From: a virus
Lineage: Duplodnaviria; Heunggongvirae; Uroviricota; Caudoviricetes
IMG/VR virus record: IMGVR_UViG_2541047922_000008
Length of the DNA stretch: 18,265 nt
Strand: one strand, 5' to 3'
Both the position numbers and the translations under genes were made by a program. Below are positions 1 to 18,265 of the stretch, piece after piece. Positions within the stretch are counted from its first letter, which is position 1. Each line of letters opens with the position of its first letter. The notes beneath the pieces were generated by a model. It was not told the origin of the DNA. It saw nothing but the letters and a program-made list of their open reading frames with translations, and ran no database searches.

Positions 1-180
1 TTACCCAACGCAATTAAGTGCGTCAGAATCGATTACAGCGCGTTCCTGTGGCACGTTGTTGCCGTTCTCAGCAGTGAAAGGAGAGCGTGAAAAACGCATA
101 TCTATTACTGTTGAGGGGGGGGGGTAGCGGCATATATCGCGCATATCCACGCCGTTAATCCCGATACCGTCACGGCGCAT
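1..180 (-). CDS. small hypothetical protein, 59 aa, with an internal C10 (coding-strand) tract
   Basis: Hand translation gives MRRDGIGINGVDMRDICRYPPPSTVIDMRFSRSPFTAENGNNVPQERAVIDSDALNCVG, with ATG at 178-180 and TAA at 1-3. It is one residue below the 60-aa track cutoff. GGTGGA lies 5 nt upstream of the ATG, preceded by an AT-rich region. No recognisable family. Confidence 0.3.
   Translation of the reverse strand: MRRDGIGINGVDMRDICRYPPPSTVIDMRFSRSPFTAENGNNVPQERAVIDSDALNCVG
115..124. repeat. G10 homopolymer (C10 on the minus strand)
   Basis: Counted directly: ttga-GGGGGGGGGG-tagc. It lies inside the 1-180 ORF and encodes YPPP. Confidence 0.95.
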
Positions 181-425
181 TGAGATCCACCAGAAGATTA
201 AGATAGTTTACCTGAAATTATCCAAATAATTGTTTTAACTGATTAATTTTTCGAATATCTATTGTTAGGGAATAAATCATCAGATACACCATAAAACGAC
301 ATCTTTCAGGGTGTAGAAGATGCAAAGCTGGTATTGAAGAAAAGACAAAGAATATGAATGGCTGGCCACACGATGGAAGGATTGTCCATTGAGGGATAAA
401 TCCCCGTGGTACAAGTTTTGGTAAA

Positions 426-445
426 CCCGCGCTGCGGGCTTTTTT
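426..445 (+). terminator. candidate rho-independent terminator (orphan, + strand)
   Basis: cccgc-gct-gcggg is a 5-bp all-GC stem with a triloop, followed by c + T6. No convincing upstream + strand CDS. Confidence 0.4.
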
Positions 446-476
446 GTGGACGAAACAAAAGTCAGTGCTACACTCA

Positions 477-504
477 TTGACGCCACATCGAGGTGGCTTA
501 TAGA
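477..504 (+). promoter_or_regulatory. candidate sigma70 promoter
   Basis: TTGACG (477-482), 16-nt spacer, TATAGA (499-504). It points toward the 3' end of the minus-strand cassette, and only short or dubious ORFs lie downstream. Confidence 0.3.
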
Positions 505-663
505 TGGAAATGTCACAATGAAAAAAGCATTTGCTGCACTGTTCTCTGGTGGCTTCAACTCAGGCCTTTGCCGGTCGTTGTCAGCACGACAGCGATACTG
601 CCGCTGACGGCTCCCGCTGCGGTGGGCGTTCTGCTGATTCCCGCCCGGGCGGCGGTGGCATTC

Positions 664-691
664 GTTAAAAACAAGGCCGCGAAAGCGGCCT
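664..691 (-). terminator. rho-independent terminator of the large-protein cassette
   Basis: Minus strand reads aggccgc-tttc-gcggcct followed by tgttttta. It begins 9 nt after the TGA stop (700-702) of the 104-aa gene. Confidence 0.7.
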
Positions 692-699
692 GTGACATG

Positions 700-1014
700 T
701 CACGATAGTTCCGTTTTGTTGAATTCAATTATATCAAGGTCAGAACTTTCGTAATCCTTACCGAATAAAGCAAAACATATCGCGTCAAGTTCTCTCTTAT
801 GTTTGGACGCCCGATCATAATTACCACCCCAACAGCAAATGAATCCACCAAGTACTGCTGATTCAAAAAGTAATGATGCTGCATCAATATGTCTGAACCA
901 GGAGTCTATAAGTAAAGCAGAGAGTGATATTAATGTTCCCCACCCGCCAATCCTTCTCCATTTCTCAGCTTCATATTTAAGAGAAGCAATATATTCAATT
1001 TTATCTCTCGTCAT
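700..1014 (-). CDS. small membrane protein, 104 aa, two predicted TM helices
   Basis: Hydrophobic stretches IGGWGTLISLSALLIDSWF and AASLLFESAVLGGFICCWGG. Its start overlaps the upstream stop as ATGA, with a GGTGGGGA SD. AT-rich relative to the upstream gene. Confidence 0.75.
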   Translation of the reverse strand: MTRDKIEYIASLKYEAEKWRRIGGWGTLISLSALLIDSWFRHIDAASLLFESAVLGGFICCWGGNYDRASKHKRELDAICFALFGKDYESSDLDIIEFNKTELS

Positions 1015-3770
1015 CAGTTCCCCACCGCCTTTCCAAAATCCGGTGCTCTACGTGGCGCAATAGCACCCGGTTCCCACCAACTCGTTATGTCGAACTCCCG
1101 TTGCGAGCGGTCCCTTACTCGATCATTGTAACCAGGGTTTGCCATCTCCTGAAGTTGTTGCAATATCAGGTGATTGGTTATCGCTTTCGCATACCACAGG
1201 TTTGCGAATGGGGTGATCATGCGGGCTGTTTTCAGTGCATCGGCACCGAATGATGTTTCTTCACCCTGTAGAGCCTTCTGTGGGTTAGTAATCAGTAATT
1301 TTGTTAACTGCTCTGCAAAGCTCAACACAGGGCCCCCCATAGTGGCACCGATGCTGGAGCCATATTGCGTATGGTCCTGGAAAATAAAATCACCGTAGAT
1401 ACCGAACGAACCACCTTTCAGTAAAGCCTGAACCCATGTGGTTGGTTTTGTCATATCCAGCGGATCATTACCATTTAACAAACTGTTCATCTGGATCGCA
1501 AACATACCAGCAAGAGTTGTTCCCCCGATATATGAGGCCAGAAATTTAATGGCCGGAACGGTGTCCAAATCCCGTGTTCTGTTAACAAGTTGCCGAAATC
1601 CAGCAAATGGGGTTGTTTTGAAGAGCATGAAGCTCTTCATTAACTCGCCAGCATCATCACGGGCATATGTATCAATACCCGTAGCGGTGGTCACAGCATT
1701 GGTCATCTCACCGTGCGTAATTCCCAGCAATTTCTGGGCTGCTTCAGCGCGTGCATTACGAATCATGCGCGTGATGGTCTGCTCAGCCTCAGCGTCGAAT
1801 GCTTCTTTCATCCGTTTCAGGCGTTCTGGAGGGAGATCTCCAAGGGCTGCCAGTGCCTTTTCACTCCCGGCACGAATCCGGGTAATACGGTCTGCCATAA
1901 TGTCGGCTATTACGTTATCGGGCACAGCGTAAATCGCGTCTGGCGTCATCCCCATATGCCCGGCAGTAGTCATCGGCCTGAGTTCTGCCGCTGCCATGAT
2001 GGCCCAGTCCTCATTGCTCCATCCCTTGTTAGCCAGAATGGTTTTATCGGTTCCTTTCATATCGTCCAGCGTCTTAAATTTTCTGGTCAGCTCGCCAATG
2101 TTTTTGTACATCAGGAGACCAAACGACGCTTTGTTTGCGCGGTCCATAGCGATCAGCCCGGACCACTTCAGTGTCTTCTCTGCGAACCAGCCAGTTATGC
2201 CGCGAGACAAGTCAAACCCGCCCATTTTCGAAACCACAGCAGCATGTGAATCCACCAGCAGACCGAGTTCAGCATTCGCCTTTTTGGCATCTCCACTAAA
2301 CAGGTTTTTGATAGTGTTAACGGAAAGCCGCATTCCACCACGGGTAAAGCCCAGCGCCTGCGCATTTGCCCGCATAATTGCCTGGTCGCTGGTTGCTGTC
2401 AGTACGCTGGTGCCAAGCATGGCGCTGGTCATCAGGTTACGCAGACCACCAACTGCTGAAGAGAACACACTCGATGAAGCGACACCATTTAGGCCAGCCA
2501 TTGAGTTGAACATACGGGCAACTAATTTGGCCTCATCCTCCATTTCTTTTTTGCGTTTCCCGCCTGTTACTGCGCGCTTATAGATGCGATCCAGTACCAG
2601 GGAAAAGTTTCTTTCGGCGTCCGGACCAAAGGCTTTAACGACGCCCAAATCCCTGGATGATGATTGCAGGTGCGACATCATCACCCCCACCAGCGGCTGC
2701 TGAGTGTATCGCTCCATATAGGCGAAGTGTGACTGCGCATCCTTGAACGCCATCACCCTGTGCTGAGAACCACGGCTCTTTATTCCTCCGGCTCCCATAA
2801 ATGTACCAGGCTCAATTTTGTTTGCCCCATCAGTGGCCTTCGTTTCAAAGATCGCTTCCAGTGCCTGACGGTACTCGACGTCATTCATAATGCTGCCGTC
2901 AGGATTAACGTAATTGCTGCGATCCTGCGTGTTGTAAGCGTCATCAACCCATTTCTGGCGGGCAAACTCAATCGGTGGCTGGCGACCTGAAAGACGTGCT
3001 GTAGCTTGCTCTGCCACTGGTAACGATGCCAGCCATTCTTCGCGCCCGGCATTGCGAATAAGGTCAGCATCATCCACATATGGCGTATGCCAGTCTTCTC
3101 GCAGGCCTATGTCAAAGCCATTGTCGTTCATCTCATGACGAACACGGCCTGTTACATCCTTCCAAATCTGTGCAATTTTCTTCGCCAGGGGATTCCCGGT
3201 ATCTTCGCCATATATTTCTTTCAGGATCTGGAGTTGTGCAGACTTTGCCGCCTGCCTGTCGAATACACTCCGAAACCGCTGCTCTCCAAGCGCCCTGCTC
3301 TGCTCGAAGAATTTGCGGACGTCATCACCTGCTTTTAGAAGTTCAGCACTGAGCTGACGGGACCAGTCCTGATATGCCCCAATTGCAAGCTCTTCAGCAG
3401 AAGTAACGGAGATATCAGCTTTGTCTCTCGATCGTCGGCCAGCAAAAATAAACTGCTGCAAATTAACAGGTGTCTGCTGATCAGGCGGGATGTTAGCATC
3501 GAGAGTGTCAGTAATTTTACTGATGGCGATCGCATTCTGGGCAACACGCTGTCTTTTCTTGTACACATCATGAACCACACGCTGGCGAACCAGTTCTGCA
3601 GCATCCATGTATGTTTGAGCATCAGGAATACCACTTTTGCCTTCCATTGCATTCTTTCTGTGCACTTGCCGCACAGCTTCTTTGATACGATCTTCGATAT
3701 TTTTCAGCTCATCAGCCTTTGGCTGGCGACCAAGTGTCTGCGCAATAGCTTCAACACATGCCTGTTTCAT
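1014..3770 (-). CDS. large protein (918 aa from ATG 3770) of unknown function, phage internal-virion/ejection-like
   Basis: Long ORF. I prefer ATG at 3768-3770 (GAGGA SD 7 nt upstream, TAATG overlap with the upstream stop) over the GTG at 3791 used by the track. Contains Gly-rich hydrophobic segments (SSVFSSAVGGLRNLMTSAMLGTSVLTA; GGTTLAGMFAIQ; KGGSFGIYGDFIF; ATMGGPVLSF) and long helical charged regions. No catalytic motif recognised. Confidence 0.85.
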   Translation of the reverse strand: MKQACVEAIAQTLGRQPKADELKNIEDRIKEAVRQVHRKNAMEGKSGIPDAQTYMDAAELVRQRVVHDVYKKRQRVAQNAIAISKITDTLDANIPPDQQTPVNLQQFIFAGRRSRDKADISVTSAEELAIGAYQDWSRQLSAELLKAGDDVRKFFEQSRALGEQRFRSVFDRQAAKSAQLQILKEIYGEDTGNPLAKKIAQIWKDVTGRVRHEMNDNGFDIGLREDWHTPYVDDADLIRNAGREEWLASLPVAEQATARLSGRQPPIEFARQKWVDDAYNTQDRSNYVNPDGSIMNDVEYRQALEAIFETKATDGANKIEPGTFMGAGGIKSRGSQHRVMAFKDAQSHFAYMERYTQQPLVGVMMSHLQSSSRDLGVVKAFGPDAERNFSLVLDRIYKRAVTGGKRKKEMEDEAKLVARMFNSMAGLNGVASSSVFSSAVGGLRNLMTSAMLGTSVLTATSDQAIMRANAQALGFTRGGMRLSVNTIKNLFSGDAKKANAELGLLVDSHAAVVSKMGGFDLSRGITGWFAEKTLKWSGLIAMDRANKASFGLLMYKNIGELTRKFKTLDDMKGTDKTILANKGWSNEDWAIMAAAELRPMTTAGHMGMTPDAIYAVPDNVIADIMADRITRIRAGSEKALAALGDLPPERLKRMKEAFDAEAEQTITRMIRNARAEAAQKLLGITHGEMTNAVTTATGIDTYARDDAGELMKSFMLFKTTPFAGFRQLVNRTRDLDTVPAIKFLASYIGGTTLAGMFAIQMNSLLNGNDPLDMTKPTTWVQALLKGGSFGIYGDFIFQDHTQYGSSIGATMGGPVLSFAEQLTKLLITNPQKALQGEETSFGADALKTARMITPFANLWYAKAITNHLILQQLQEMANPGYNDRVRDRSQREFDITSWWEPGAIAPRRAPDFGKAVGN

Positions 3771-5830
3771 TATGGGTTCCTCAAGAAGCACGCTGCCGCT
3801 ACAGAATAAACCTTCGATTCGTTCTGGACTGTCTTAATCTGTTCATCCAACTCAGCCAGGAGATCAGAAAGTTTTGTCGGGTTTCCGGTTTCCGGGTGAG
3901 CTATAGTCAGCTCAGGATTGGCAACAGCCATGTCCCTAGCAGCCATAAGGTCATAGCTGTTGGATGAGAGAACCTGCCCTGTATCTGGATCAACGCTGAC
4001 GTCCCCTCTGTGTTCACCAGCCGATGAGAAAGCACTTTCAGCACGAGGGACAGGCGATTCACTAATTGGCTCTGATGATGTTTCATATCTGACACCATTT
4101 TCTTCAAAAACCTTTTGTATTTCATGGTATTGCTCTTGGTAAGTATCAGATATATCTGATCGCAATGGACCATCAAGCCCTCGCGCCATCCCCCCAACAT
4201 TTACAGGCTGACCATCATTAAGTTGCCTGTATGCTTCATCCATGGCGTCAACATGGCTGTTGATGCTCTCATTGCTGGTGTGAAGCACTGGTGACGATTC
4301 AATATCGTAATGAAGCCCCTCATTCAAAATGTGGGCTGCATCAATATCGCTTGGTTTTATTCTTTCCCTCGCCCGGATACCAAAAACTTTTTCTACTGCG
4401 GCTTCCAGTTTCATATTGCGAAGACGCATACTTACGAGTAACCGTAACTGCTCAGGTGTAACGGTTCCAACCTGAATACCACTGTATCTGAATATATAGG
4501 CTTTAAAACCTGAAATAATTTTTTCCCATGATGAAACGCTTGTCTTTAGAGATGGATTTACTGCATGTGCGGCAACTTCTTCAGCGTACAACCACTCAGG
4601 ATATGTTTCAGGGTACTCACCCCTTTTCTTATATTCATAATATTGTGACATCCCATATGCAAATTCAGGATAGTCAGAATGCTTGTTTGCAGATTTAAGT
4701 ACAGCATTAGCTAGCTTTCTGGCCTTCCAGTCAGGGTAATGGCGCTGCTCAAGATGAAGCGCCTCGTGATGAAGGGTTTCTAACAGTTCTTCATGGTCTT
4801 TTAATCCATTAATATTTATTCTTATTATTGGTTCTTTTCCAGAAGCTACTGTCACATGACCTTTATTCAGAAGTATTTCTCCATCACTATTTTTTATTGC
4901 TGGTTCATTAATAAGTTCTATTACTCCTGAATCAGATAAATCACGAACCATTGACTCAATGTTACCATCAGGAGATTGCTGATAATGTTCACCAAAAGTT
5001 GATTTTATTTCTTCTGCAGAAATGTTCGACTCTGTACCATCATGGTTATTATGGGTAGTCAGGTGATGAACGCCACCAAAGACCCCGCCTAAAACGGCAT
5101 CGACTAACATCGCCTGACCGTCAAATACCCGGTACTGTTTTGCCATCTCCGTGTAGCCTTTTTCCTCCAGTGTTGCGCCGACAGAGTAACGGTTCAGTCC
5201 ACCGAATCCGGTGTTGATTGCCACACCTGAGGCAATGCGCGTTGCCAGTGTGGTGCCGACGGCAGCGGGTAAGGCCATACCCACAGCATTGAAAAGGCTT
5301 TGCTGCGTTGCCAGGTTACGCGCCGTAGCCTCGTCTACTCCCTTCCCTTTAAAATCCTGATAGGACTGCTCATACGTAGAACTGAAAGCTGTAGCAGCGC
5401 CGATGAGGGGACCGCCAAACATAGTTGTTCCGATTGCAGGAACAAATTTACCAAGCTCATTTAATACCTCAGCCGCCATTCCCTGACTGCCTGCATCAGG
5501 CTTCACATAGCTGCGGGCATCCTGTAACTGTTTTCCGATCGTGTCGTATGTATCATTCAGTGTTTTGTCAGCATCAGGGAACATCTCCCGAAAAATATTA
5601 ACAGTCGGTGCCACGTCTGCGGTAAATGCCGGATCGCTAATCAGGCGCTTGCTGAATCCGACGGCAGACTGCGCGAGACCGAGAGTCCCCTCCGCCACGC
5701 CGCTCAAAAGTGCAGTACCTGAACCCTGGAAGGGAGTCGGATCGTAGTCTTCTGGCCTTGCTGGGTTGGCAACTGTTTTGTCGTCAATCCATGCCTGACC
5801 TTCTGGAGCCAAAGAAAAAACATCAGACAT
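3770..5830 (-). CDS. large protein (686 aa) with Gly-rich hydrophobic N-terminal third and a central HEXXH (zincin-like) region
   Basis: Long ORF. GAGGG SD 7 nt upstream and a TAATG overlap with the 843-aa gene stop. N-terminal segments PAIGTTMFGGPLIGAATAF, NAVGMALPAAVGTTLATRIASGVAINTGFGG and VDAVLGGVFGGV. HEALH at residues 355-359. Confidence 0.85.
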   Translation of the reverse strand: MSDVFSLAPEGQAWIDDKTVANPARPEDYDPTPFQGSGTALLSGVAEGTLGLAQSAVGFSKRLISDPAFTADVAPTVNIFREMFPDADKTLNDTYDTIGKQLQDARSYVKPDAGSQGMAAEVLNELGKFVPAIGTTMFGGPLIGAATAFSSTYEQSYQDFKGKGVDEATARNLATQQSLFNAVGMALPAAVGTTLATRIASGVAINTGFGGLNRYSVGATLEEKGYTEMAKQYRVFDGQAMLVDAVLGGVFGGVHHLTTHNNHDGTESNISAEEIKSTFGEHYQQSPDGNIESMVRDLSDSGVIELINEPAIKNSDGEILLNKGHVTVASGKEPIIRININGLKDHEELLETLHHEALHLEQRHYPDWKARKLANAVLKSANKHSDYPEFAYGMSQYYEYKKRGEYPETYPEWLYAEEVAAHAVNPSLKTSVSSWEKIISGFKAYIFRYSGIQVGTVTPEQLRLLVSMRLRNMKLEAAVEKVFGIRARERIKPSDIDAAHILNEGLHYDIESSPVLHTSNESINSHVDAMDEAYRQLNDGQPVNVGGMARGLDGPLRSDISDTYQEQYHEIQKVFEENGVRYETSSEPISESPVPRAESAFSSAGEHRGDVSVDPDTGQVLSSNSYDLMAARDMAVANPELTIAHPETGNPTKLSDLLAELDEQIKTVQNESKVYSVAAACFLRNP
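4754..4768 (-). other. HEXXH motif (HEALH) of the 686-aa protein
   Basis: The reverse complement of 4754-4768 is CAC GAG GCG CTT CAT = H E A L H, in the context LETLHHEALHLEQRH. The motif alone does not prove a metallopeptidase. Confidence 0.55.
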
Positions 5831-9447: not shown

Positions 9448-9925
9448 TCATCTCCTCCAGTAGTTTTCCTGCGTGCGTCTGTTGTAGTGGTGTTACCTCG
9501 CCGCACGGCTGGCCTTTCAGGTCGTAACGCGCGCCACCAGCTACCAGGGCGCGGTAATAGCGCGGAGTCTGCACATAACGCGCCAGCGTTGCGCGTAGTG
9601 TTCCCTGTCCGAGTGAAATACCTCTCGCGGCAATATCCTGTATCAGGTCGTCAAATATCCCCACCTTAAGCGGCTTAGGTGATTCCGGGCTGAATAATTC
9701 AGGCCATAGCTCAATAAGACGGTTAACGCGTCTGCGGTTTTTACGCTGCTGTTTGGTCATACGCCGCCGCGGTGTTGCTCCTGTGAGCTTCTGCTGTGTG
9801 TTCTGGTTATCTGGCATCACTTTATGCGCCGATGTGGTTTTATTCTGCTGCTGCGCCGCCTGTGCTGTTTTCTGCGGCGTGCCGTAAATGCCCTTCGGTT
9901 TTCTGTTTATGGTCAGCTTTGTCAT
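9428..9925 (-). CDS. ProQ/FinO-domain RNA-binding protein, 165 aa
   Basis: Basic N-terminus followed by [29 protein letters not shown]...[35 protein letters not shown], the characteristic FinO/ProQ domain pattern. GGGGAAGG SD. Confidence 0.85.
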
Positions 9926-10387: not shown

Positions 10388-10449
10388 GCTGTTTGTTCTC
10401 CGGTTTTAACGTGATAGTTACGCTTGTTTACACTCTTACAGTGAAATTT

Positions 10450-10574
10450 TGCGGGTTACAATCGCACATTTGCGGGTTATAACTGCCGTTTTGCGGGTTA
10501 CGTGCGGGTTATTGATTTCCTTTTTAATCATGCAGTTAATTAACTTATACACAGGATAACCCGCATAACCCGCA
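10450..10574. repeat. iteron array, putative replication origin
   Basis: TGCGGGTTA at 10450, 10471, 10492 and 10503 (spacings 21, 21, 11 bp). An AT-rich core follows (attgatttcctttttaatcatgcagttaattaacttatac). Two inverted copies TAACCCGCA sit at 10557 and 10566. The array lies directly downstream of the primase/helicase stop. Confidence 0.75.
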
Positions 10575-10597
10575 ACTTTTTACCTCACACAGGGAAG

Positions 10598-12724
10598 TTA
10601 ATCTTCTGCTTCAGGCTGGAACATCAGCACGTAAAAAATATGCTGCTTCCCGCCAATCCTGCCGAGCGCCTTTTTCTTGTAACGGCGGTCGCCTCCCGCT
10701 TCCAGCATTCCGGCAGCACTCAACGCGCGGGCAAAGTGAGACGGATTAAATCCCTGTGCTATCTCACCCTCAAACACATGCGGGAACGTGTAAAAACGGA
10801 ACTCGTCATCTTCGTTTCTGATACTCCCCTTTCTGTATCCGGCAAGGTCTTTAATCGGTAAATCACGCTCGTCGCTGTTTGGATAGGGAAGGTATCGACT
10901 GAACCCGAACGACGACAAAAACGCCTCAGCCTGTTCAACCATCTGTTTAAATTCCCTGTTGCCCGTGCCGAATTCCTTCACCCAGGCATTAAAGTTATGC
11001 TGAACTGCATCACGGCACGCCTGAACATCCCAGCCTGTAACATGACCGGAAAGCACAAGCGCGGCCTCCAGTACGGCGAATCTTTCCCCCACACGGTGAA
11101 CCTGCTCGCCGTAGCTCTCCGGTATCAGGTTGCGCCACCGCTCGCGACATGCCCTTACCGCGTCCTTTGCCTCCTGCTGGTGGCCTGCCAGCCATTTAAC
11201 CCACTCACGACCTGCCGCCCCGTGATTTTCTGTCCAGGCATCTTTTAACGCGTCTGCGTGCGCCTTTCCGGTGCTGTATTCGTGAAACTGCGAGGCCTTT
11301 TCCATCGGTACGTTAAGCAGACGGACAAGCTGCCCCGCTTTAATTTTTATCCCTTCCGTTTTGAGGAATGTTTCAACGTCCATTTCTCCGGTGCTGATTG
11401 CCACCGTGCGCCAGTGTTTTATCTCCCTGTTGCCGCCGTCCTTCGCCCCCTGTAATTTCCCGGAACCGTTAAACAGCGTATAGGCTGACGTGGACACCTC
11501 CCGTGCGTTTCCGGCCTGGCCTATTTCATCCAGGGGTAACAGCCCGTCATTATGTGCTTCGGCCTCGTTGGCGATACCTAACGCCGTTCCGTACCAGGTC
11601 AGCCGTTGCGCGTCCGGCTCTCCCCATAAACTTGATGCAATGTTCTGTGTGGTGGTTTTACCTGCTGATGATTGCTCAAAAAGATGAACCCCGAAGCCGT
11701 CAGCACCCACCAGCCCGATTAATGGTGCAGATAGCGATACCGCCACACCCAGCATCATGGACGGATTACCACCAGCCAGCCGTGCCACGGTATCGCGCCA
11801 GCCCTCCGCTGTTCCCGCCACGGAATAGCCATTAACAGCGGCAGTTTTTCCGGTAAACAGGATGGGTTTCTCTGATTCACCAATGACCGAACCGTCCGGC
11901 ATGATGTACGCACCAAAATGCCACCCCGTTGTTGTGCTTAACTGCCATTCCTCATGGTTTCCGCTTAACTGCATCCAGTCAGCCAGGATAGCCCTGTATT
12001 TGCCGTTGGTCGTCACGTTAAGGCCGTGGTCTTTCAGCAACCGCCAGCCGTCACGGTCACCAATGCCTCCGCACGGGACCGCCATTGTAATGACCTCATG
12101 GTTTGCTGGTTTTTTCCAGCGCATTACGCGGTAATGCTCTTTTCCGATTGTTCCTGTTCCCAGTAGTTCAAGCGGAGAACATAACCACGTCTCAGGCCGG
12201 ATAATTTCGCCTGACTGCTTGTCCACTTTGGGCGTTACCCAGAAAACACCATCGACGCGACTTTCAACACGAGGCTTTAATTCGTCATCATAATTTCCGG
12301 TGAAATTTGTCTTCGCCGGAAGGTTGATCACCAGACTGTTACCGTGTTCCGCATCATCCTTCAGTCCAGCCATGCGCGGTGTCCAGTCCTCCGGCTGCTG
12401 ATCAACAAAGCTGCGGTAGCAACGCGCCTCCTTCACACCCGCCACTGCAAGCAGTGTCGCTATCTGTGTAAGGTGCTGCTCTGATATTTCACCAGCACGA
12501 TAAACGCGCACGTAATAGCGCCCTTTGTCGATGATTTGCGTGTCTGCCAGACTCGCCAGTTGTTCCGGTCCAAGAATAACTGGATGTGTATCATCTGCCG
12601 CAATATGCTTTCCGGCCCATTCGCTCCACTCTTTCGCATGTGCCCAGGCATCACTACCCGCAAAGATAATCACCTCCGTCATTTTGTCTTTCGGCTGGTG
12701 CTTTAAATTCGGTGCGCGTTTCAT
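10598..12724 (-). CDS. DUF927-type P-loop primase/helicase (functional analogue of P4 alpha / PICI Pri-Rep), 708 aa
   Basis: Walker A is FEQSSAGKTT; the reverse complement of 11654-11662 is GGT AAA ACC = GKT. Walker B-like LLPLDEIGQ. Overall resemblance to DUF927 replication proteins of islands. ATGA overlap with the upstream gene and iterons immediately downstream. Confidence 0.85.
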   Translation of the reverse strand: MKRAPNLKHQPKDKMTEVIIFAGSDAWAHAKEWSEWAGKHIAADDTHPVILGPEQLASLADTQIIDKGRYYVRVYRAGEISEQHLTQIATLLAVAGVKEARCYRSFVDQQPEDWTPRMAGLKDDAEHGNSLVINLPAKTNFTGNYDDELKPRVESRVDGVFWVTPKVDKQSGEIIRPETWLCSPLELLGTGTIGKEHYRVMRWKKPANHEVITMAVPCGGIGDRDGWRLLKDHGLNVTTNGKYRAILADWMQLSGNHEEWQLSTTTGWHFGAYIMPDGSVIGESEKPILFTGKTAAVNGYSVAGTAEGWRDTVARLAGGNPSMMLGVAVSLSAPLIGLVGADGFGVHLFEQSSAGKTTTQNIASSLWGEPDAQRLTWYGTALGIANEAEAHNDGLLPLDEIGQAGNAREVSTSAYTLFNGSGKLQGAKDGGNREIKHWRTVAISTGEMDVETFLKTEGIKIKAGQLVRLLNVPMEKASQFHEYSTGKAHADALKDAWTENHGAAGREWVKWLAGHQQEAKDAVRACRERWRNLIPESYGEQVHRVGERFAVLEAALVLSGHVTGWDVQACRDAVQHNFNAWVKEFGTGNREFKQMVEQAEAFLSSFGFSRYLPYPNSDERDLPIKDLAGYRKGSIRNEDDEFRFYTFPHVFEGEIAQGFNPSHFARALSAAGMLEAGGDRRYKKKALGRIGGKQHIFYVLMFQPEAED

Positions 12725-13023
12725 TTCTTGCCCCTGAATGCGTTAATCATGTTCTTTATTACCTGAATATTTGCCTGTGCTTTCTCTTTACTGGTGGGCT
12801 TACTGCGTGGTACTGCACATACCAGTGAAAAATCACGCCGGAACTGATGAACGGGCATCACACAGTCATAGTCGTACCCTGCGCGGCGGTATGTAATGTG
12901 CCGTTCATACACGGAATTAATAACCACGCTGTCGCCATATTTATCCCGGAAAATATCCCCGATCCTGATTTTCGGGCGAGTCTGTCCGCTGGCATTTAAG
13001 CCAGTAAATTTAATCTTCTTCAT
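12721..13023 (-). CDS. hypothetical protein, 100 aa
   Basis: Operon position and ATGA coupling to the primase gene. No family recognised. Confidence 0.65.
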   Translation of the reverse strand: MKKIKFTGLNASGQTRPKIRIGDIFRDKYGDSVVINSVYERHITYRRAGYDYDCVMPVHQFRRDFSLVCAVPRSKPTSKEKAQANIQVIKNMINAFRGKK

Positions 13024-13025
13024 GT

Positions 13026-13283
13026 TTATTTCCCGGTATGGGGTTCTTCTTTATATTTATGGGCTAACAAATCTGGTAATTGCCTGTATTTATCCTCGGC
13101 AATATATTCAGAATAATCGACAGCACTGTTCAGTATATCTAACGCCGTTTCATGCTCCAGATTCGAAACTATAAGGAACGTTGCTACTTTTAGCATATTC
13201 GCGATATGCAAAAGAGCATCAATTTCATTTTTTGGCGCTTCACTGAATTTTTGCTCCAGAAGAATAAATCGTTCATCACGCAT
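13026..13283 (-). CDS. hypothetical protein, 85 aa, AT-rich
   Basis: AGGGGGA SD. Its start overlaps the Icd-like stop (ATGCGTGA). No family recognised. Confidence 0.6.
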   Translation of the reverse strand: MRDERFILLEQKFSEAPKNEIDALLHIANMLKVATFLIVSNLEHETALDILNSAVDYSEYIAEDKYRQLPDLLAHKYKEEPHTGK

Positions 13284-13479
13284 AGTATTCCCCCTGACGG
13301 ATGCGGGCAGTAAATACCATCACGCAGCCAGTCGGGGATTGCTGACGGGCTTCCTGTTCGCTGGCGGCCTCGATGTGTATTACGCGTGGTTGTGCGGTGC
13401 TCAGGGCGATAAAACGCCAGATGTATTTATTCAGGTTGTGCGAGTCCCGCCCTTGCGGGTGTGTGGTATGATTTAACAT
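13276..13479 (-). CDS. icd: Icd-like (host cell division inhibitor family) small protein, 67 aa
   Basis: Internal ATG (13477-13479) of the spurious 396-aa track ORF, with a GAGGT SD. The sequence MLNHTTHPQGRDSHNLNKYIWRFIALSTAQPRVIHIEAASEQEARQQSPTGCVMVFTARIRQGEYYA has the Y-I-W-x-F ... SE-x-EAR ... F-x-AR pattern I associate with Icd-like proteins of P4-like elements (memory). Confidence 0.65.
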   Translation of the reverse strand: MLNHTTHPQGRDSHNLNKYIWRFIALSTAQPRVIHIEAASEQEARQQSPTGCVMVFTARIRQGEYYA

Positions 13480-13484
13480 AGCTA

Positions 13485-13582
13485 CCTCGATACGCTTTCT
13501 ATCGTTGGTGGTTAGACGCCCTGCATGTGTTGCGAGCACTGCGGGGCGTTGCTTAATTTGAGCAATGCAACCCAAACTGTGC
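13485..13582 (-). ncRNA. structured leader, candidate C4/CI/IsrK-type antisense immunity RNA
   Basis: ~100-nt leader between the predicted start site and icd. A 9-bp stem with one mismatch and a 14-nt loop spans 13517-13548. A 5-bp hairpin at 13488-13504 abuts the SD. In P1 and P4-like elements a C4/CI RNA precedes icd. No covariance-model search was possible. Confidence 0.35.
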
Positions 13583-13588
13583 GCACAG

Positions 13589-13616
13589 ATTAAAATCATG
13601 TGTGCGCACATGTCAA
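13589..13616 (-). promoter_or_regulatory. strong sigma70-like promoter of the icd-primase operon
   Basis: Minus strand reads TTGACA (13616-13611), 16-nt spacer, TTTAAT (13594-13589). Confidence 0.6.
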
Positions 13617-13619
13617 TAC

Positions 13620-13648
13620 TTAACTTCTCACTTTTTTTGCTGTATTGT
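13620..13648 (+). promoter_or_regulatory. candidate promoter of the + strand RHH gene
   Basis: TTAACT (13620-13625), 17-nt spacer, TATTGT (13643-13648). Back-to-back with the minus-strand promoter. Confidence 0.4.
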
Positions 13649-13684
13649 GTGCGCCCATCAAATCCATTTAAGTGAGGTGTACCA

Positions 13685-13882
13685 ATGTCTAGCGGAAACA
13701 CAAACAACAAATCAGCAAAGAAAAATATTCGATTCCCGCACGAGCTTATAGATGGGATTGATGCCAGTGTTGAACAAGAAAAATTAACTAATCCTAGTGC
13801 TAATTTTTCCGCATGGGTCTTAGATGCCTGTGGACGCAAATTAAAATATGAACAGCGCCGGAAGGCCAAAGAGCAGGAGTAA
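13685..13882 (+). CDS. small RHH-type regulator (YlcI/YnfO-DUF3950-like), 65 aa; likely repressor acting at the TGTGCGCACA sites
   Basis: GAGGTG SD 5 nt upstream. KNIRFPHELIDGIDASV (strand + helix) and NFSAWVLDACGRKL (helix) fit an RHH fold. Divergent from the operator-bearing promoter. Confidence 0.65.
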   Translation: MSSGNTNNKSAKKNIRFPHELIDGIDASVEQEKLTNPSANFSAWVLDACGRKLKYEQRRKAKEQE

Positions 13883-13909
13883 CCATCACCAGCGCCGTGG
13901 TGCGGTGAA

Positions 13910-13922
13910 CTGTGGCGCACAG
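13910..13922. promoter_or_regulatory. fourth operator-like site (CTGTGgCGCACAG)
   Basis: Same sequence as the 13577-13588 palindrome with one inserted G. Located between the two small + strand ORFs. Confidence 0.4.
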
Positions 13923-13939
13923 GGTTACAGGTATCTACG

Positions 13940-14137
13940 ATGACTGACAAATCATTAAAGAAATTATCCTCATCCAGGAAAAAACAACGCAAAAATGCGG
14001 TAAGCGAACAAGAACAGGAAAGATTTGCGCCATGTGCGTTTGTCCTTGAGAAGTTCTTAAAAGAGTACAGGCGCACAAAAATGGAATCGCATACCTGGAA
14101 AACATCGCAGTATGGCGATGCTAAAGAGCAGGAATAG
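13940..14137 (+). CDS. possible small basic protein, 65 aa
   Basis: ORF with a weak SD, ending with the same AKEQE-stop as the upstream gene. A + strand terminator follows at 14228. Confidence 0.35.
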   Translation: MTDKSLKKLSSSRKKQRKNAVSEQEQERFAPCAFVLEKFLKEYRRTKMESHTWKTSQYGDAKEQE

Positions 14138-14227
14138 CCCACCAGCAAGCCAGCACACTGATCACATTGCCCACCAGCCGCAAATCTGGCATTGTTGGCG
14201 ATGCGTTTGATTTCCTTTGTTCCCACT

Positions 14228-14256
14228 GGCGACCTATCCCGGTCGCCTTTGTTTTG
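14228..14256 (+). terminator. rho-independent terminator of the + strand small-gene unit
   Basis: ggcgacc-tatccc-ggtcgcc followed by tttgttttg. Confidence 0.7.
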
Positions 14257-14305
14257 CCTGTTATCCAGCAACGGGGCGCTTTTTCTTTCTGTAACGTTCG
14301 GATCG

Positions 14306-14863
14306 TTACACATTGCTTTCACCCTCCAGAAAATCAGGCTGATATTTACGCCATAGCGCCCGCTCTTCTCGTTCCAGTGCATCTTTTGCCTCTTTGCATT
14401 GCTGTAACCTGTAACCGCGTTTGCTGGCTTCCTGTTGATATGCAGCCTGACGTTTACTGAAATCATTCAGCATGGCAAACGGAACACCATAACCCCCCGT
14501 TTTGCGGATTGAAGGAATCACCTCGCGGAATACCCAGTTACTGAAACGGTGCGCAAATGTGCCTGGTGTGGAAGCTTTACGGCTGCGGGCGATCAGTTTG
14601 TAGAAACCTGATTCAGAGACAACATTCCAGCTTCTGGCACCACCACGCTTACCGGAATGACCCTCGGTTAAAGCTAGGGTCATTACCTCATCGTTATCCA
14701 GAACTGAAACGGCATCAGTAACATTGCTGATTTCCAGCGCGGCACACACATCAGCGCCAACAAACCACGGCTCGCCGTTGATACTCACTATGCGCACCTG
14801 AATGTCATCGAATTTAATGACAGAGATTTCAGTGCGACCAGCATAAAAGACAGGTTTACGCAT
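14306..14863 (-). CDS. Bro-N domain protein (prophage antirepressor family), 185 aa
   Basis: IKFDDIQVRIVSINGEPWFVGADVCAALEISNVTDAVSVLDNDE matches the Bro-N pattern. 8-nt overlap with the upstream gene. Confidence 0.85.
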   Translation of the reverse strand: MRKPVFYAGRTEISVIKFDDIQVRIVSINGEPWFVGADVCAALEISNVTDAVSVLDNDEVMTLALTEGHSGKRGGARSWNVVSESGFYKLIARSRKASTPGTFAHRFSNWVFREVIPSIRKTGGYGVPFAMLNDFSKRQAAYQQEASKRGYRLQQCKEAKDALEREERALWRKYQPDFLEGESNV

Positions 14864-15656
14864 GGCTGCTCACCTCCATGCGGCGGGCTAACCAGCGTTG
14901 CGAAAGGCGAATTAATTCAGCTTTCCGCTGGTGGTAGTCCAGGCCTAACTCAATCAGCGTGATATTGCTCTGCTCAAGGTAAGAAAGGTGCTCAAGCTGC
15001 AACACGCTCATGTGGTCGCGTGGTTCACCTGTGATGCCGTTCGCCTGCGCCCACTGTTTTGCAGTCATGCCACCCAGCACGATACGCGCCAGCATATTAG
15101 CTTCCGTAGTGTAGTGGTGCTGGAGCGTGTTTTTACCCAGTTCAGCCCGGTACGCCTCCAGCGCGGCACACATTGGCTTAAAGTAGCTGGCTACGGTGAT
15201 ACGGGCTTTCAGTTCCCGGCGTAACGCTGCGGAACGTACAGGCGCTACCTTGTGTAGCTCCTCCTCGCATTTGATGAAGTACTGACGAACGGCGCGGCCC
15301 TGTTCGGTGCGTTCGATCATTGCCAGTTCTTTCGCCATATTCAGGGTGAGTAAGTAATCATGAGCAAGCTGCTGGCGAGATTTTGCGCTCGCCGAATTGG
15401 GTGAGGTCAAATATTTGACGACTTCAAAATCTACTCCCTTTTTAAATCCATACTCCTCAATGCGCCCTTTAATCCAATTGGTGAAATCACGGCCTACCCC
15501 GAGCGCATTATGCAACGTTCTAGCGCTAACAATATTGGTTTCACGCCCGCCAATAACGCCGGAAATAACCGGGATAATTTCGCCAAAATTTTGCAGATTC
15601 TGGTTTTCAGGCCGAACGAAGCCCTGCCCCTGTACGGGCGTTTTTCGCAGTTTCAT
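14856..15656 (-). CDS. AntA/AntB-type antirepressor-family protein, 266 aa
   Basis: VSARTLHNALGVGRDFTNWIKGRIEEYGFKKGVDFEV ... DYLLTLNMAKELAMIERTEQGRAVRQYFIKCEE is the AntA N-terminal domain pattern. Confidence 0.85.
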   Translation of the reverse strand: MKLRKTPVQGQGFVRPENQNLQNFGEIIPVISGVIGGRETNIVSARTLHNALGVGRDFTNWIKGRIEEYGFKKGVDFEVVKYLTSPNSASAKSRQQLAHDYLLTLNMAKELAMIERTEQGRAVRQYFIKCEEELHKVAPVRSAALRRELKARITVASYFKPMCAALEAYRAELGKNTLQHHYTTEANMLARIVLGGMTAKQWAQANGITGEPRDHMSVLQLEHLSYLEQSNITLIELGLDYHQRKAELIRLSQRWLARRMEVSSHA

Positions 15657-15731
15657 AAAAACACCTGCTGTCGAATTAAGTTACTTTTATTTGCTAGTGG
15701 ATAGCTTGGGCAATAACCCGTAGCTATTTAA

Positions 15732-15929
15732 TCAGGCAGCCGTTCCGCGTGATTCGGCAATACGCTGATTGATCCATTCGTCAATTTCACTTTCAACGAA
15801 AGCAATCGCTCGCGAGCCAATTTTAACTGATGCAGGAAATTTACCTTGCCCCATAAGGCGATAAATCCATGCCTTGCTATATCCAGTTCTACGCTGAACT
15901 TCTGTTAAACGAATAAGCGTATTTGACAT
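15732..15929 (-). CDS. alpA: AlpA/Vis-family transcriptional regulator/excisionase, 65 aa
   Basis: LIRLTEVQRRTGYSKAWIYRLMGQGKFPASVKIGSRAIAFVESEIDEWI is the classic AlpA helix-turn-helix. GAGGT SD. Confidence 0.9.
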   Translation of the reverse strand: MSNTLIRLTEVQRRTGYSKAWIYRLMGQGKFPASVKIGSRAIAFVESEIDEWINQRIAESRGTAA

Positions 15930-15998
15930 CTATTTACCTCATAACGTCTACTCAATTTGACGAGGTAATCATGGCACAGAAATAACGAATATTTTCAT

Positions 15999-16109
15999 AC
16001 CCTCAGGCCTAATGGTTACCGGAAGGAAATTAACCCTAAGGGTGATGGTAAAATTGACGGGGAAGATAAAAAAAATACCCTCAGGGTAACAGTAAATCAC
16101 CCTCAGGGT
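15999..16109. repeat. four copies of the 11-bp palindrome ACCCTNAGGGT upstream of alpA
   Basis: accctcaggcc at 15999 (imperfect), accctaagggt at 16033, accctcagggt at 16077, accctcagggt at 16099. Spacings are 34, 44 and 22 bp. Confidence 0.7.
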
Positions 16110-16124
16110 ATGTGGTATGGTGCG

Positions 16125-16928
16125 TTAATCCGGCTTTGCGTTCTTTTGGCTGTTGTCTCGGTTAATAGGGCAGGCAGTCCTCTCTATGAGCGTTGCAAGA
16201 GCATTACTTGCCCCCCACTGCTTAAGCTCCCTGGTTATCGCTTCTTGATTTCCCCTGGTGGCAAAATCATTTTCTGGATCGTAATTGGCCCACTCTCTGT
16301 TTCTAATCTCAATAGCCTTAGCTAATGGGTCTTTATCCCAGTATTTATATAAGTGTATCGGGCGCTCTTGCTCTAACTGCTCTATCCTTGCCCTTAACTC
16401 TGCGTTTTCTCTTTCCAGCATTGCGATTTGGGATAATAAATCATCCTCTGTACGCAACTCTTTCTTTTCAATATCGCGTCCTTGTGCCTCGTCATTTTCA
16501 GAAGAGTTAGCGCCTTCCAGCTTCGTTAACGCGTCAAGGACATCGGGAAAAATTGCGAAAATTTCACCCCTTATAAATCCAATGTTCTCAAATTCGGGAT
16601 CTTCCCAATAACCGGACACCAGAAAACCATTTTCATCCCTCTCACCAGGTAAACAACCATGTTTCCGAACCGCATCCAGATTTCTATAAAGAACATCATA
16701 ATCAAATTCATCCCGATACGGGTTACAAAAAGATTCCAACAGCTTAAATTCATTTACTGTGTACAGGCGGATATGTTCTCCGCTTATTCTCCTGAGTATC
16801 CAAGTTATGAGATCTGAAACATCATAATCATCACCAGCGACCTTAAGCACGACCTCAAGAAATTCACGTAAAGAAATAAAATCTTTTTTGTATTCGTTTA
16901 ATTCGGCATGAATATCAATCATACGCAC
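16125..16928 (-). CDS. hypothetical protein, 267 aa, AT-rich, central coiled-coil; cargo gene between int and alpA
   Basis: GAGGTG SD. LSQIAMLERENAELRARIEQLEQE is coiled-coil-like. No family recognised. Two 60-nt lines hand-counted gave 25/60 and 19/60 GC, visibly lower than neighbouring genes. Confidence 0.8.
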   Translation of the reverse strand: MRMIDIHAELNEYKKDFISLREFLEVVLKVAGDDYDVSDLITWILRRISGEHIRLYTVNEFKLLESFCNPYRDEFDYDVLYRNLDAVRKHGCLPGERDENGFLVSGYWEDPEFENIGFIRGEIFAIFPDVLDALTKLEGANSSENDEAQGRDIEKKELRTEDDLLSQIAMLERENAELRARIEQLEQERPIHLYKYWDKDPLAKAIEIRNREWANYDPENDFATRGNQEAITRELKQWGASNALATLIERTACPINRDNSQKNAKPD

Positions 16929-17032
16929 ACCTCAGCGTCCTCTACTGTAGTGGCTGTGCCAGCCCGTCGAGGTATACGGTTTTTCGGGAGCGACCCTAGA
17001 CACAGCCTTTTCTTTCGTCGCTCAAAGTCTAC

Positions 17033-17052
17033 TACTGTATACTCAACCAGTC
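17033..17052. promoter_or_regulatory. LexA (SOS) box-like sequence
   Basis: TACTGTATACTCAACCAGTC has CTG-N10-CAG and 14/20 identity to TACTGTATATATATACAGTA by my count. It lies ~105 nt upstream of the 267-aa gene and overlaps the integrase stop codon. Confidence 0.35.
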
Positions 17053-18265
17053 ATCCACATTTTCCGAACTTGCCATGCACCACGTTGCCGCCCTGTTCCA
17101 GTGAGTCCATATAGTCGGCGTACCACTGGAGCATCTCGCGCCGCCCGTCCAGATATTGCGCATGATTGTACGTGCCACGAATTGAGTTCTTATCAACGTG
17201 TGCAAGCTGCGTTTCTATCCACGCGGTGTTATAGCCCTGCTCATGTAAAATCGTGCTCATCGTGTGCCGGAACCCATGACCAGTAACGCGCCCAGAATAG
17301 CCAATACGACGAATAAGCACGTTCATCGCCATTTCACTCATCGGCTTACTGTGCTGGATTCGACCAGGGAAAATAAACTGATACTGCCCCGTCATGTGTT
17401 TTAACTGTTCCAGAATAGCGATCGCCTGTTCTGAAAGCGGCACACAATGAGGACGGCGCATCTTCATTCGTTCTTTAGGCACTTCCCACAAACGATTATC
17501 AAAATCGATCTCCTGCCATTCTGCCTGTCGTAATTCCCCTGGCCGGAGCCCTGTCAGAATCAATAATCGCATACCCAGCTTGACGATCTGGCTTCCGGTG
17601 TACGTATTAAGAACGCGGAAAAATTCCGGCAGTTCGTCGGCCTTCAAATAGGCATAATGCTCTTTTTTGTGTGGAGCAAATGCGCTTGCCAGATCTGGTG
17701 CGGGGTTATATTCAGCGCGTCCGGTGATGATTGCGTACCGGAACACCTCGCCGCATCGCTGGCGAACCTTACGCAATTTTTCGGTCGCCCCACGGTCATT
17801 AAGACGGGAGAGAACCGCAAGCAACTCCATTGGCTTAATTTCTGCGATCGGCCTGCCGCCAATGTACGGAAAAACGTCTTTTTCAAACGTCTCGATCATT
17901 TCCTCGGCGTATGACGATGACCACCTGTCGATCCGCTTTTCATACCATTCGCGAGCGATACCCTCAAAAGTATTGCCAAATTTGCTCGCCTGTTCTCGCT
18001 TTTGAGCTTTTCTGGCCTCACTTGGATTTATACCACCAGCAAGAAGCCTTTTAGCCTCATCCCTTGCCGCTCTGGCATCAGACAGAGACACATCAGGGTA
18101 CACGCCCAACGACAACATTTTGGGCTTTCCTGCAAATCTGTAACGTAGTCGCCACCCTTTCGAGCCGTTCGGCTCAATGAGTAACGAAAGCCCGTTACCG
18201 TCATTGAGTGTATAAGCCTTTTCTTTCGGCTTCGCGCGCCTGATAGCAAGGTCTGAAAGCAGCAT
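17051..18265 (-). CDS. int: P4-type tyrosine integrase, 404 aa
   Basis: N-terminus LSDLAIRRAKPKEKAYTLNDGNGLSLLIEPNGSKGWRLRYRFAGKPKMLSLGVYPDVSLSDAR is typical of P4-family integrases. The C-terminal catalytic region contains RPGELRQAEW, HGFRHT and RGTYNHAQY. Confidence 0.95.
   Translation of the reverse strand: MLLSDLAIRRAKPKEKAYTLNDGNGLSLLIEPNGSKGWRLRYRFAGKPKMLSLGVYPDVSLSDARAARDEAKRLLAGGINPSEARKAQKREQASKFGNTFEGIAREWYEKRIDRWSSSYAEEMIETFEKDVFPYIGGRPIAEIKPMELLAVLSRLNDRGATEKLRKVRQRCGEVFRYAIITGRAEYNPAPDLASAFAPHKKEHYAYLKADELPEFFRVLNTYTGSQIVKLGMRLLILTGLRPGELRQAEWQEIDFDNRLWEVPKERMKMRRPHCVPLSEQAIAILEQLKHMTGQYQFIFPGRIQHSKPMSEMAMNVLIRRIGYSGRVTGHGFRHTMSTILHEQGYNTAWIETQLAHVDKNSIRGTYNHAQYLDGRREMLQWYADYMDSLEQGGNVVHGKFGKCG

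Follow-up and report, generated by a model that had tools for sequence, protein, structure and literature searches.

An Epsilon15-Type Ejection Cassette

The stretch analyzed here, an 18,265-nt sequence from the IMG/VR virus record IMGVR_UViG_2541047922_000008 (hereafter, the window), makes up most of a ~19.3-kb island of Escherichia coli, of which ~850 bp are absent at the left. Positions are those of the window; those of the surrounding chromosome refer to locus L001 (NZ_CP122454), from whose coordinates 12009 is subtracted to obtain window coordinates. All major genes lie on the minus strand, and genes are on that strand below unless the plus strand is named. Three large open reading frames (ORFs) take up 7.3 kb, or 40% of the window, and are intact homologues of gp15, gp16, and gp17 of Salmonella phage epsilon15 (identities of cassette proteins are from tblastn and blastp). 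The ORF at 5830–8361 encodes a gp15-like internal virion protein of 843 aa (phrog_992, E = 1e-289; 79% identical to epsilon15 gp15); that at 3770–5830 a gp16-like internal virion protein of 686 aa (phrog_1145, E = 5.5e-137), which matches epsilon15 gp16 with 84% identity in its N-terminal part and 74% in its C-terminal part; and that at 1014–3770 a gp17-like virion structural/ejection protein of 918 aa (phrog_684, E = 1.6e-295), 89% identical to epsilon15 gp17 but only 27% identical to the phiV10 homologue. The three are translationally coupled and stand in the epsilon15 order. Epsilon15 is among the podophages whose internal core-stack proteins are ejected and build a channel through the cell envelope (PMC8954989), and by homology we identify the three ORFs as podophage ejection-protein genes. 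A preliminary description of the window, made from the letters alone, had seen nothing resembling capsid genes; this holds for capsid and size-redirection genes, none of which is present, but it overlooked three ORFs for virion proteins (PHROG 992, 1145, and 684). It had also named hidden Markov model searches of the ORFs left as unknown as the test of its interpretation, and these turn 7.3 kb of them into podophage ejection-protein genes. What is new here is thus an epsilon15-type ejection cassette in an island resembling EcCIMP1, a 19,963-bp E. coli phage-inducible chromosomal island (PICI) that is excised only with the temperate podophage vB_EcoP_Kapi1 present (Pick, Stadel & Raivio 2025, PMC11773190); the feature is unreported.

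Two of the three genes depart from a plain epsilon15 copy. The gp15-like protein, with a peptidoglycan-hydrolase domain at about residues 248–403 (PDB matches 9vvp_L and 7q47_A), is encoded by a chimera: the first ~1527 nt (~509 aa) are an allele of the E. coli phiV10 type and the remainder is of epsilon15 type, with satellite gp15 N-terminal halves up to 99.9% identical to phiV10 alleles. In the gp16-like protein, a center of ~200 aa (residues ~278–479, window ~4390–5000; G+C 0.41) carries an HExxH motif (HEALH) and is unrelated to the epsilon15 center. An exhaustive search of 1.84 billion representative proteins gave no homologue of this center, only fragments and the conserved flank; Pfam (E <= 1) and a word-indexed protein search were empty, a PDB sequence search returned one marginal match, outside the domain, and the single-sequence AlphaFold2 model was unusable (pLDDT 45). 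From its sequence, this central domain could be a cargo injected into the recipient cell. Downstream of gp17 lies a gene for a 104-aa protein (700–1014), which looks by eye like a membrane protein and has an 82%-identical ORF after gp17 in a Uetakevirus prophage of Erwinia dacicola. The cassette terminator follows (674–691, minus strand; terminator scan), in a segment (646–704) with 96.6% identity to the late-operon terminator region of phiV10, like epsilon15 a Uetakevirus.

The PICI Backbone

The rest of the window begins, in the direction of transcription, with a P4-type tyrosine integrase (17051–18265; Pfam Arm-DNA-bind_3, Phage_int_M, and Phage_integrase), the target of which is the 3′ end of the tRNA-Gly gene glyU, just right of the window. 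Between it and the next gene lies an int-alpA RNA motif (Rfam RF02996; 16939–17006, minus strand; L001 28948–29015; cmscan 46.9 bits, gathering 35.8, E = 4.4e-07). That next gene, for a 267-aa protein (16125–16928) without Pfam, NCBIfam, or PADLOC match, annotated in some records as coiled-coil or bZIP, is replaced by a different gene in copies with another integrase. An AlpA-family regulator follows (15732–15929; Pfam Phage_AlpA, E = 2.4e-19) and is presumed, by analogy, to be the master activator, as in other Gram-negative PICIs. Two antirepressor-family genes, AntA (14856–15656; Pfam AntA, E = 7.6e-25) and Bro-N (14306–14863; Pfam Bro-N, E = 5.1e-18), precede an Icd-like gene (13276–13479; NCBIfam NF033153 phage_ICD_like, E = 3.4e-19; phrog_6196), an 85-aa ORF (13026–13283), and a gene with a DUF4222 match (12721–13023), an order of three also found in the capsid-forming PICI (cf-PICI) EcCIEDL933. 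The DUF927 primase-helicase (pri-rep, 708 aa; 10598–12724; Pfam DUF927, E = 2.5e-46) has 82% full-length identity to the EcCIEDL933 protein. Beyond it are SSB (9962–10387; Pfam SSB), ProQ/FinO (9428–9925; Pfam ProQ), a 138-aa ORF with weak matches to PHROG 63 and 1711 (9031–9447), and a PerC pseudogene (8797–9022; PGAP), which is frameshifted in every copy of the element seen and intact in EcCIMP1, EcCIEDL933, and Uetakevirus prophages. The P4-type integrase, AlpA, DUF927, Icd-like, and two antirepressor-family genes had all been named in the preliminary description, and Pfam, NCBIfam, and PHROG bear them out. No PADLOC defence system was found; the only match, a weak one, is that of the C-terminal part of AntA (residues 172–254) to the candidate defence family PDC-S22 (E = 1.3e-10).

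Measured against the features of Gram-negative PICIs (Fillol-Salom et al. 2018, PMC6092414), the element has alpA behind int and, after it, a single long operon in the same direction; its own primase-helicase with an adjacent iteron origin; and an integrase at one end, with flanking repeats formed by the tRNA-Gly 3′ end and a degenerate copy of it. Such islands measure roughly 10–20 kb and have no structural or lysis genes; here, ~19.3 kb hold no lysis, capsid, tail, or terminase genes and three genes for virion internal proteins, an exception already accepted for cf-PICIs and present in EcCIMP1 too. The order of the backbone is the same in EcCIEDL933, in a classical E. coli PICI, and in EcCIMP1, with identities of up to 82%. 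As in EcCIMP1-like PICIs, for which the authors of EcCIMP1 use the SatelliteFinder name "Type C var01" (PMC11773190), an int-alpA-antA-icd-DUF927 backbone stands without capsid or terminase genes. Searches of the window with Pfam, NCBIfam, PHROG, and tblastn yielded no Sid, Delta, Psu, terminase, portal, or major capsid protein, upholding the earlier statement that sid/delta/psu and a small terminase are missing. The own capsid, protease, portal, connectors, and terminase of a cf-PICI are absent by Pfam, PHROG, and tblastn, and no TerS-like or DUF1441-type packaging gene was found by Pfam or PHROG, Rpp itself not having been compared. We consider it very probable that the element is a PICI satellite; that it is an integrative, satellite-type element outside the P4 scheme had been recognized before, correctly.

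Replication Origin and Control Region

An iteron origin downstream of DUF927, as first described, is confirmed by copies of TGCGGGTTA at 10441–10583. This cluster (A), just downstream of the primase-helicase gene, has the core in three direct copies at 21-bp spacing, together with inverted copies. The same TGCGGGTTA repeats form a cluster B at the far left end, off the window (L001 11658–11813). Clusters A and B lie 10.9 kb apart and flank the segment from SSB to the cassette; in EcCIEDL933 they are adjacent (locus L010, 18187–18510), and the split layout may mark the point at which the SSB-to-cassette segment was inserted. It also recalls P4, whose origin is split as ori/crr into two iteron clusters.

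A divergent control region (13578–14137) contains two palindromes and two small plus-strand genes, a DUF3950/YlcI gene (13685–13882) and a 65-aa ORF (13940–14137). The palindrome TGTGCGCACA is exact at 13578–13587 and 13601–13610, 23 bp apart, with a third copy, with one mismatch, at 13648; located between the icd operon and the DUF3950 gene, these palindromes look like operators. With no PGAP call and an overlap with both bro and the icd-like gene, a 396-aa ORF over 13276–14466 is most likely spurious. The icd gene had been placed behind a structured leader with P1 immI/P4 CI logic. A P1/P4-type antisense RNA was looked for and rejected: Rfam (E <= 0.1) gives no C4/CI-type match, the fold of the icd leader is unremarkable (z = -1.75 only), and the region consists instead of the TGTGCGCACA palindromes and divergent small genes.

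These results bear on the interpretation offered in the preliminary description, a hybrid of P4/P1 immunity and PICI replication without virion-related genes. The P4-type integrase, AlpA, Icd-like, and antirepressor genes that prompted it are present. However, we reject the hybrid label because P4-type int, AlpA, Icd-like, DUF4222, DUF927, and iteron ori together are the standard Gram-negative PICI backbone, the one seen in EcCIEDL933, a classical PICI, and EcCIMP1; nor does a hybrid fit with the failure to detect a CI/C4-type RNA or with virion internal proteins over 40% of the window. Such a hybrid is now very improbable. On sequence, the backbone is an ordinary enterobacterial PICI with nothing of a P4/P1 hybrid about it. 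The observation behind the earlier account is thus partly confirmed, whereas its interpretation, partly supported, was misdirected.

Integration Sites and Boundaries

In strain 82.0311, the element is inserted between yqeG and tRNA-Gly, and a degenerate copy of the tRNA end lies ~850 bp left of the window. From this copy (L001 11157–11175) to glyU, the element spans ~19.3 kb, and the ~850 bp off the window carry attL, iteron cluster B, and a phiP27-type cos-like site (see below). The left arm (1–673) is mostly non-coding, is conserved at 96–99% among the four sister copies compared directly, and extends off the window to cluster B, the cos-like site, and attL. Within it begins a segment (426–718) common to phiV10-like phages, which holds a small plus-strand ORF with a signal-peptide-like start. 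This ORF encodes WP_000708858.1 in L001 and in Uetakevirus prophages alike, its DNA is 93% identical to Stx phage TL-2011b, and in the window it is frameshifted by a small deletion. Extraintestinal pathogenic E. coli (ExPEC) XM and MS 196-1 have the same backbone and cassette inserted at yicC-dinD, with another integrase and other arm repeats. F11 (locus L017, NZ_CP184143) harbors a sister satellite, 99% identical in its backbone and also at glyU. A search by way of gp17 for the same satellite in other genera gave four loci, all complete Uetakevirus prophages, and an IMG/VR scan with the junction sequence described below gave two contigs, one a provirus call and one a metagenome fragment, which are uninformative on packaging.

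Could the region simply be a decayed Uetakevirus prophage? Uetakeviruses too possess a P4-type integrase, AlpA, PerC, and Bro-N, and SatelliteFinder has mistaken intact Uetakevirus prophages for PICIs (PMC10121019). Yet phage similarity is confined to 426–8361, save for a weak stretch of 69% nucleotide identity in bro (14504–14619); only gp15–17 and the genes downstream of them are present, and no portal, capsid, gp11–gp14, tailspike, terminase, or lysis genes of a Uetakevirus were found. Moreover, Uetakevirus prophages sit beside guaA and replicate with DnaT/P-type proteins, whereas the element sits at glyU or yicC-dinD, and its DUF927 protein has 82% identity to a cf-PICI counterpart. We find a decayed prophage scarcely credible.

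The Cassette Slot and Its Maintenance

The cassette is joined to the backbone at a sharply defined place. The first gene of the morphogenesis slot, at 8458–8664, encodes a 68-aa protein (phrog_4934, E = 1.9e-31) that, to the eye, gives the impression of a ribbon-helix-helix protein. In classical PICIs, the stretch homologous to this gene (~88–90% nucleotide identity) adjoins a ClpP-protease/major-capsid fusion gene. Prophage homology stops precisely at the gp15 ATG (8361), classical PICI homology, which takes in the 68-aa gene, sets in at ~8428, and the 66 nt between (8362–8427), the joint of PICI and phage-derived DNA, are unique to such elements; the junction was found in 45 of 5426 complete E. 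coli genomes. At the boundary between replication and virion blocks stands an intrinsic-terminator-like hairpin (8771–8792, minus strand), a 9-bp stem followed by a T run. Since this hairpin precedes the 68-aa gene, what runs from that gene to the 104-aa ORF has the look of a late unit of its own; no sigma-70-like promoter was found before the cassette. Judging by these alignments, the cassette occupies the slot in which classical PICIs and cf-PICIs hold their capsid and packaging genes.

Genes gp15, gp16, and gp17 are intact in all copies examined, with pairwise ratios of nonsynonymous to synonymous substitution rates (dN/dS) of 0.02–0.25, and ~3.8% of random substitutions in the cassette would yield a stop codon. 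In F11, the slot holds a cassette of phiV10 type (L017 11437–18232), which matches phiV10 at 95.5% identity across 6.8 kb, from the start of gp15 through the end of gp17. That the cassette swaps alleles with E. coli Uetakeviruses is well supported by these sequences, and the same comparisons identify it as a stable, exchangeable part of the element, moving between two integration sites.

One might instead take the cassette for functionless recombination debris from a co-resident Uetakevirus prophage. Short homologies in the gp15 N-terminus and in the terminator/small-ORF region permit exchange between satellite and prophage, the junction is present in only 45 of the 5426 genomes, and other genes of the element are decaying, namely perC, one bro copy (internal stop), and the small ORF at 426–718. 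But debris would hardly leave 7.3 kb of ORFs intact in every copy examined, given the share of substitutions that create stops, nor have borders as precise as the gp15 ATG and a phage terminator; two integrases carry the cassette to two chromosomal sites, two allelic types occupy one slot, and EcCIMP1 offers an independent parallel with a different ejection-protein family. On all these counts, a functionless relic is unlikely.

Association with Uetakeviruses

Co-occurrence was assessed with a chimeric query, made of the satellite gp16–gp17 region and the phiV10 portal-to-capsid region, the carriers being the 37 genomes with an epsilon15-type cassette. The Uetakevirus portal-to-capsid part matched in 26 of these and in 523 of 5389 other genomes (9.7%; odds ratio 22, Fisher p 2e-18, uncorrected for strain relatedness); the second match was confirmed as a prophage in one genome, AH19D088. 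There, a complete-looking Uetakevirus prophage beside guaA is co-resident with the satellite. As this prophage carries a phiV10-type gp15–17 set, the satellite gp16 and gp17 are only 27–31% identical to those of the helper candidate, and the two sets would therefore be distinguishable in particles. AH19D088 is a blood isolate, and its prophage (locus L023, 25822–28941) has an endosialidase-type tailspike, the sequence of which suggests K1 capsule specificity. Beside or downstream of their ejection genes, Uetakeviruses also have Bro-N genes (L009 19646–20230; L021 35165–35875; L023 24358–25053) with ~44–45% protein identity to the satellite Bro-N, related genes by way of which satellite and helper could influence each other's regulation.

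The helper had earlier been judged beyond deduction from known satellite schemes. Phages of the epsilon15/phiV10 type are nevertheless indicated by the cassette, by its recombination with alleles of Uetakeviruses, and by the co-occurrence. We hold the association with Uetakeviruses to be probable, and a role of a Uetakevirus as the inducer to be slightly favored.

Packaging Signals

The earlier statement that there is no cos site is right within the window; ~390–470 bp left of base 1 (L001 11544–11625), however, is a cos-like site, ~82 nt homologous to the annotated cos region of phage phiP27 (84.5%, E = 2e-11). The flank TCAAATTTTTACACCCGCGAAAT is identical to phiP27 at 23 of 23 positions and does not vary among the satellite copies examined. 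Window-type copies have the core CGCCGCCTC and AH19D088 has CGCCCGCCTC; written as CGCC(C)GCCTC, this G+C-rich core is nearly identical to the CGCCCGCCCC of phiP27. The match was found to phiP27 only, a direct comparison with the cos of P2 and P4 not having been made. phiP27 is a Stx2e myovirus whose head is of HK97 type; it has an HNH gene and a small terminase of the P27 family, and its cos lies between HNH and terS, whereas the cos-like site stands alone at the end of the satellite. phiV10, with a PF03592 small terminase and a PacB-like large terminase, has another terminase type than phiP27. One element thus combines a cassette indicative of a podophage with a cos-like site indicative of a P27-type terminase, a mismatch of podovirus and myovirus types by which one satellite would possibly draw on two phage kinds. 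From its sequence, the site may be functional or may be a relic of a cos-type PICI ancestor. Packaging had been called impossible to deduce: the route is indeed still unsettled, but a cos-like site does exist just off the window. As to length, the element (~19.3 kb) is about half as long as phiV10 or epsilon15 (39.1–39.7 kb), so that two copies (38.6 kb) would about fill the helper head; the same two copies amount to 91% of the 42.6 kb of phiP27.

Several points weigh against an element that is associated with Uetakeviruses and supplies its own ejection proteins. The sole packaging-type signal matches the cos of the myovirus phiP27, not of a podophage, and P27-type terminase genes occur in 16 of the 37 carriers, the strain of the window included, versus 12.5% of the others. 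Mimicry of pac was considered as well and set aside, as no satellite sequence resembles the phiV10 terS region. The strain of the window and its near-identical relatives show no Uetakevirus prophage, and the co-occurrence tests are uncorrected for strain relatedness. In AH19D088, the satellite gp15 N-terminus is nearer to phiV10 (99%) than to the co-resident prophage (90–92%), because of which a strict rule of allele matching between satellite and helper is, in this single pair, not supported. The low dN/dS may partly have come in with imported phage alleles, and induction, packaging, and virion incorporation are all inferred from sequence. Last, EcCIMP1 is transduced by Kapi1 only at very low frequency, and its known phenotype is superinfection immunity, in Kapi1 lysogens (PMC11773190).

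This phenotype fits a different explanation, in which the cassette serves as an immunity or interference module against Uetakeviruses, while packaging is really the work of a phiP27-type cos phage or terminase, the island being mobilized by way of its cos site as is usual for PICIs. Within the carrier cell, the ejection homologues would then block or mis-assemble the incoming channel, or enter Uetakevirus progeny as mismatched parts. In its favor are the perfect identity of the cos-like flank to phiP27 and the enrichment of P27-type terminase genes in carriers; in AH19D088, moreover, satellite gp16 and gp17 differ in type from those of the co-resident prophage. The immunity that EcCIMP1 adds against its podophage comes without a known defence system (PMC11773190), and the present element has no PADLOC system either. 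Conversely, an immunity module is at odds with a strongly positive co-occurrence with apparently intact Uetakevirus prophages, and the F11 cassette, 95.5% identical to the genes of a working phage, is unlike a poison copy. The cassette lies behind a terminator in the slot for induced virion genes, with no sigma-70-like promoter found before it, and induced EcCIMP1 leaves Kapi1 titres undiminished (PMC11773190). On balance, we rate an immunity module with a phiP27-type helper as rather unlikely, if still to be reckoned with.

Proposed Mechanism and Significance

The interpretation to which we lean, by a modest degree of belief, is that of a Uetakevirus-associated PICI supplying its own ejection proteins, as its gene content suggests. 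In the model, a temperate podophage of the phiV10/epsilon15 type would induce the element and turn on alpA, as in EcCIMP1 and other Gram-negative PICIs; AlpA would in turn bring about excision, replication by way of DUF927 and the iterons, and expression of the distal genes. The satellite gp15, gp16, and gp17 would be loaded into procapsids built by the helper, docking through the phiV10-type N-terminal half of gp15. Packaging would proceed from roughly dimeric concatemers, the only recognizable signal being the phiP27-type cos-like site. Particles with satellite DNA would then deliver it through an ejection apparatus specified by the satellite, and differing strongly from that of the helper (27–31% identity for gp16 and gp17 in co-resident pairs). 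Whether the cassette proteins are incorporated into virions for the satellite's own transfer is a separate matter, and one on which we are somewhat more doubtful than confident.

Known satellites resize capsids, redirect the terminase, or build heads of their own. Carrying the DNA-delivery proteins of the helper would amount to a fourth kind of piracy, one acting not at assembly but at entry into the next cell. If this is true, the channel proteins of the satellite, including a gp16 whose orphan HExxH domain is injected into the recipient, would set where and how its DNA is delivered, and a possible gain would be access to cells from which the ejection proteins of the helper itself are excluded. 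In a bolder form, satellite ejection proteins might make heads that a cos terminase has filled compatible with the short tails of podophages, resulting in chimeric particles. The pattern is repeated, with an epsilon15-type set here, a phiV10-type set in F11, and a P22-type set in EcCIMP1. Speculatively, these three could belong to an unrecognized class of PICIs that parasitize temperate podophages with an exchangeable ejection apparatus of their own and without capsid remodeling, although we would not put this at much more than a conjecture. "Incomplete" PICI calls in E. coli (Type C) could then be reclassified and their helpers predicted from the cassette type. In the literature searched, no paper other than that on EcCIMP1 links satellites with ejection proteins, and none states this as a general feature.

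Comparison with Known Systems

Among the systems compared, P4 resembles the element in its integrase family, in a tRNA gene as the insertion site, in an AlpA-like regulator, and in the split iteron origin, but the element has no sid, delta, psu, or CI RNA, and its DUF927 protein has no match to a P4-specific family (P4 alpha not directly compared). Epsilon15 and phiV10 share with it the gp15-gp16-gp17 order with overlapping start and stop codons, protein identities of 74–89% in the case of epsilon15, and the downstream small genes and terminator. Unlike them, the element possesses the gp15–17 sub-module only, without gp13, gp14, or other head, tail, packaging, lysis, and replication genes, and differs further in a gp15 that is a phiV10/epsilon15 chimera and in the orphan center of gp16. 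Classical E. coli PICIs (EcCICFT073 type) have a cos site, their multimers being packaged into helper heads of full size (Fillol-Salom 2018, PMC6092414). They are like the element in their int-alpA-pri-ori organization and in the region of the 68-aa gene; their slot, however, contains the ClpP-protease/capsid fusion and a DUF1441 gene, they have lambdoid cos siphophages as helpers, and they have no ejection proteins.

The cf-PICI EcCIEDL933 is like the element in its backbone, with the same order, high identities (82% for DUF927, 67% for DUF4222, 68% for SSB, and 45% for the Icd-like protein), the iteron core TGCGGGTTA, PerC and a small ORF immediately ahead of the virion module, and a related cos architecture. 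It differs in that its iteron clusters are adjacent and its slot is filled by an HK97-type capsid protein, protease, portal, connectors, HNH, and terS/terL, none of which is found here.

EcCIMP1 was described as having no structural genes, three hypothetical proteins like "DNA transfer proteins" or Kapi1 proteins being proposed as packaging candidates, and its AlpA is needed for its excision and transfer (PMC11773190). On re-examination, we find that the genes after its primase are a P22-type set, 14, 7, 20, and 16. It is therefore like the present element in having a podophage ejection cassette after the primase, as it is in size (19,963 bp vs. ~19.3 kb), insertion at a tRNA gene, and lack of capsid and terminase genes; it shares int (66%), alpA (78%), antA (60%), Icd-like, DUF4222, and DUF927 (62%) genes and has a weak cos-like match. 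The differences lie in the cassette, of P22 and not epsilon15 type, with no blastp similarity and different PHROG families; in a primase with an added TOPRIM part, an intact PerC, and a second alpA; and in the evidence, EcCIMP1 having been studied experimentally and the present element being known from sequence alone. The preliminary description had asked whether an already defined subtype with identical gene content exists: a relative has been described, EcCIMP1 (PMC11773190), but its gene content is not identical. As far as sequences can tell, the present element is the EcCIMP1 design with an unrelated family of ejection proteins, and EcCIMP1 is its closest known relative.

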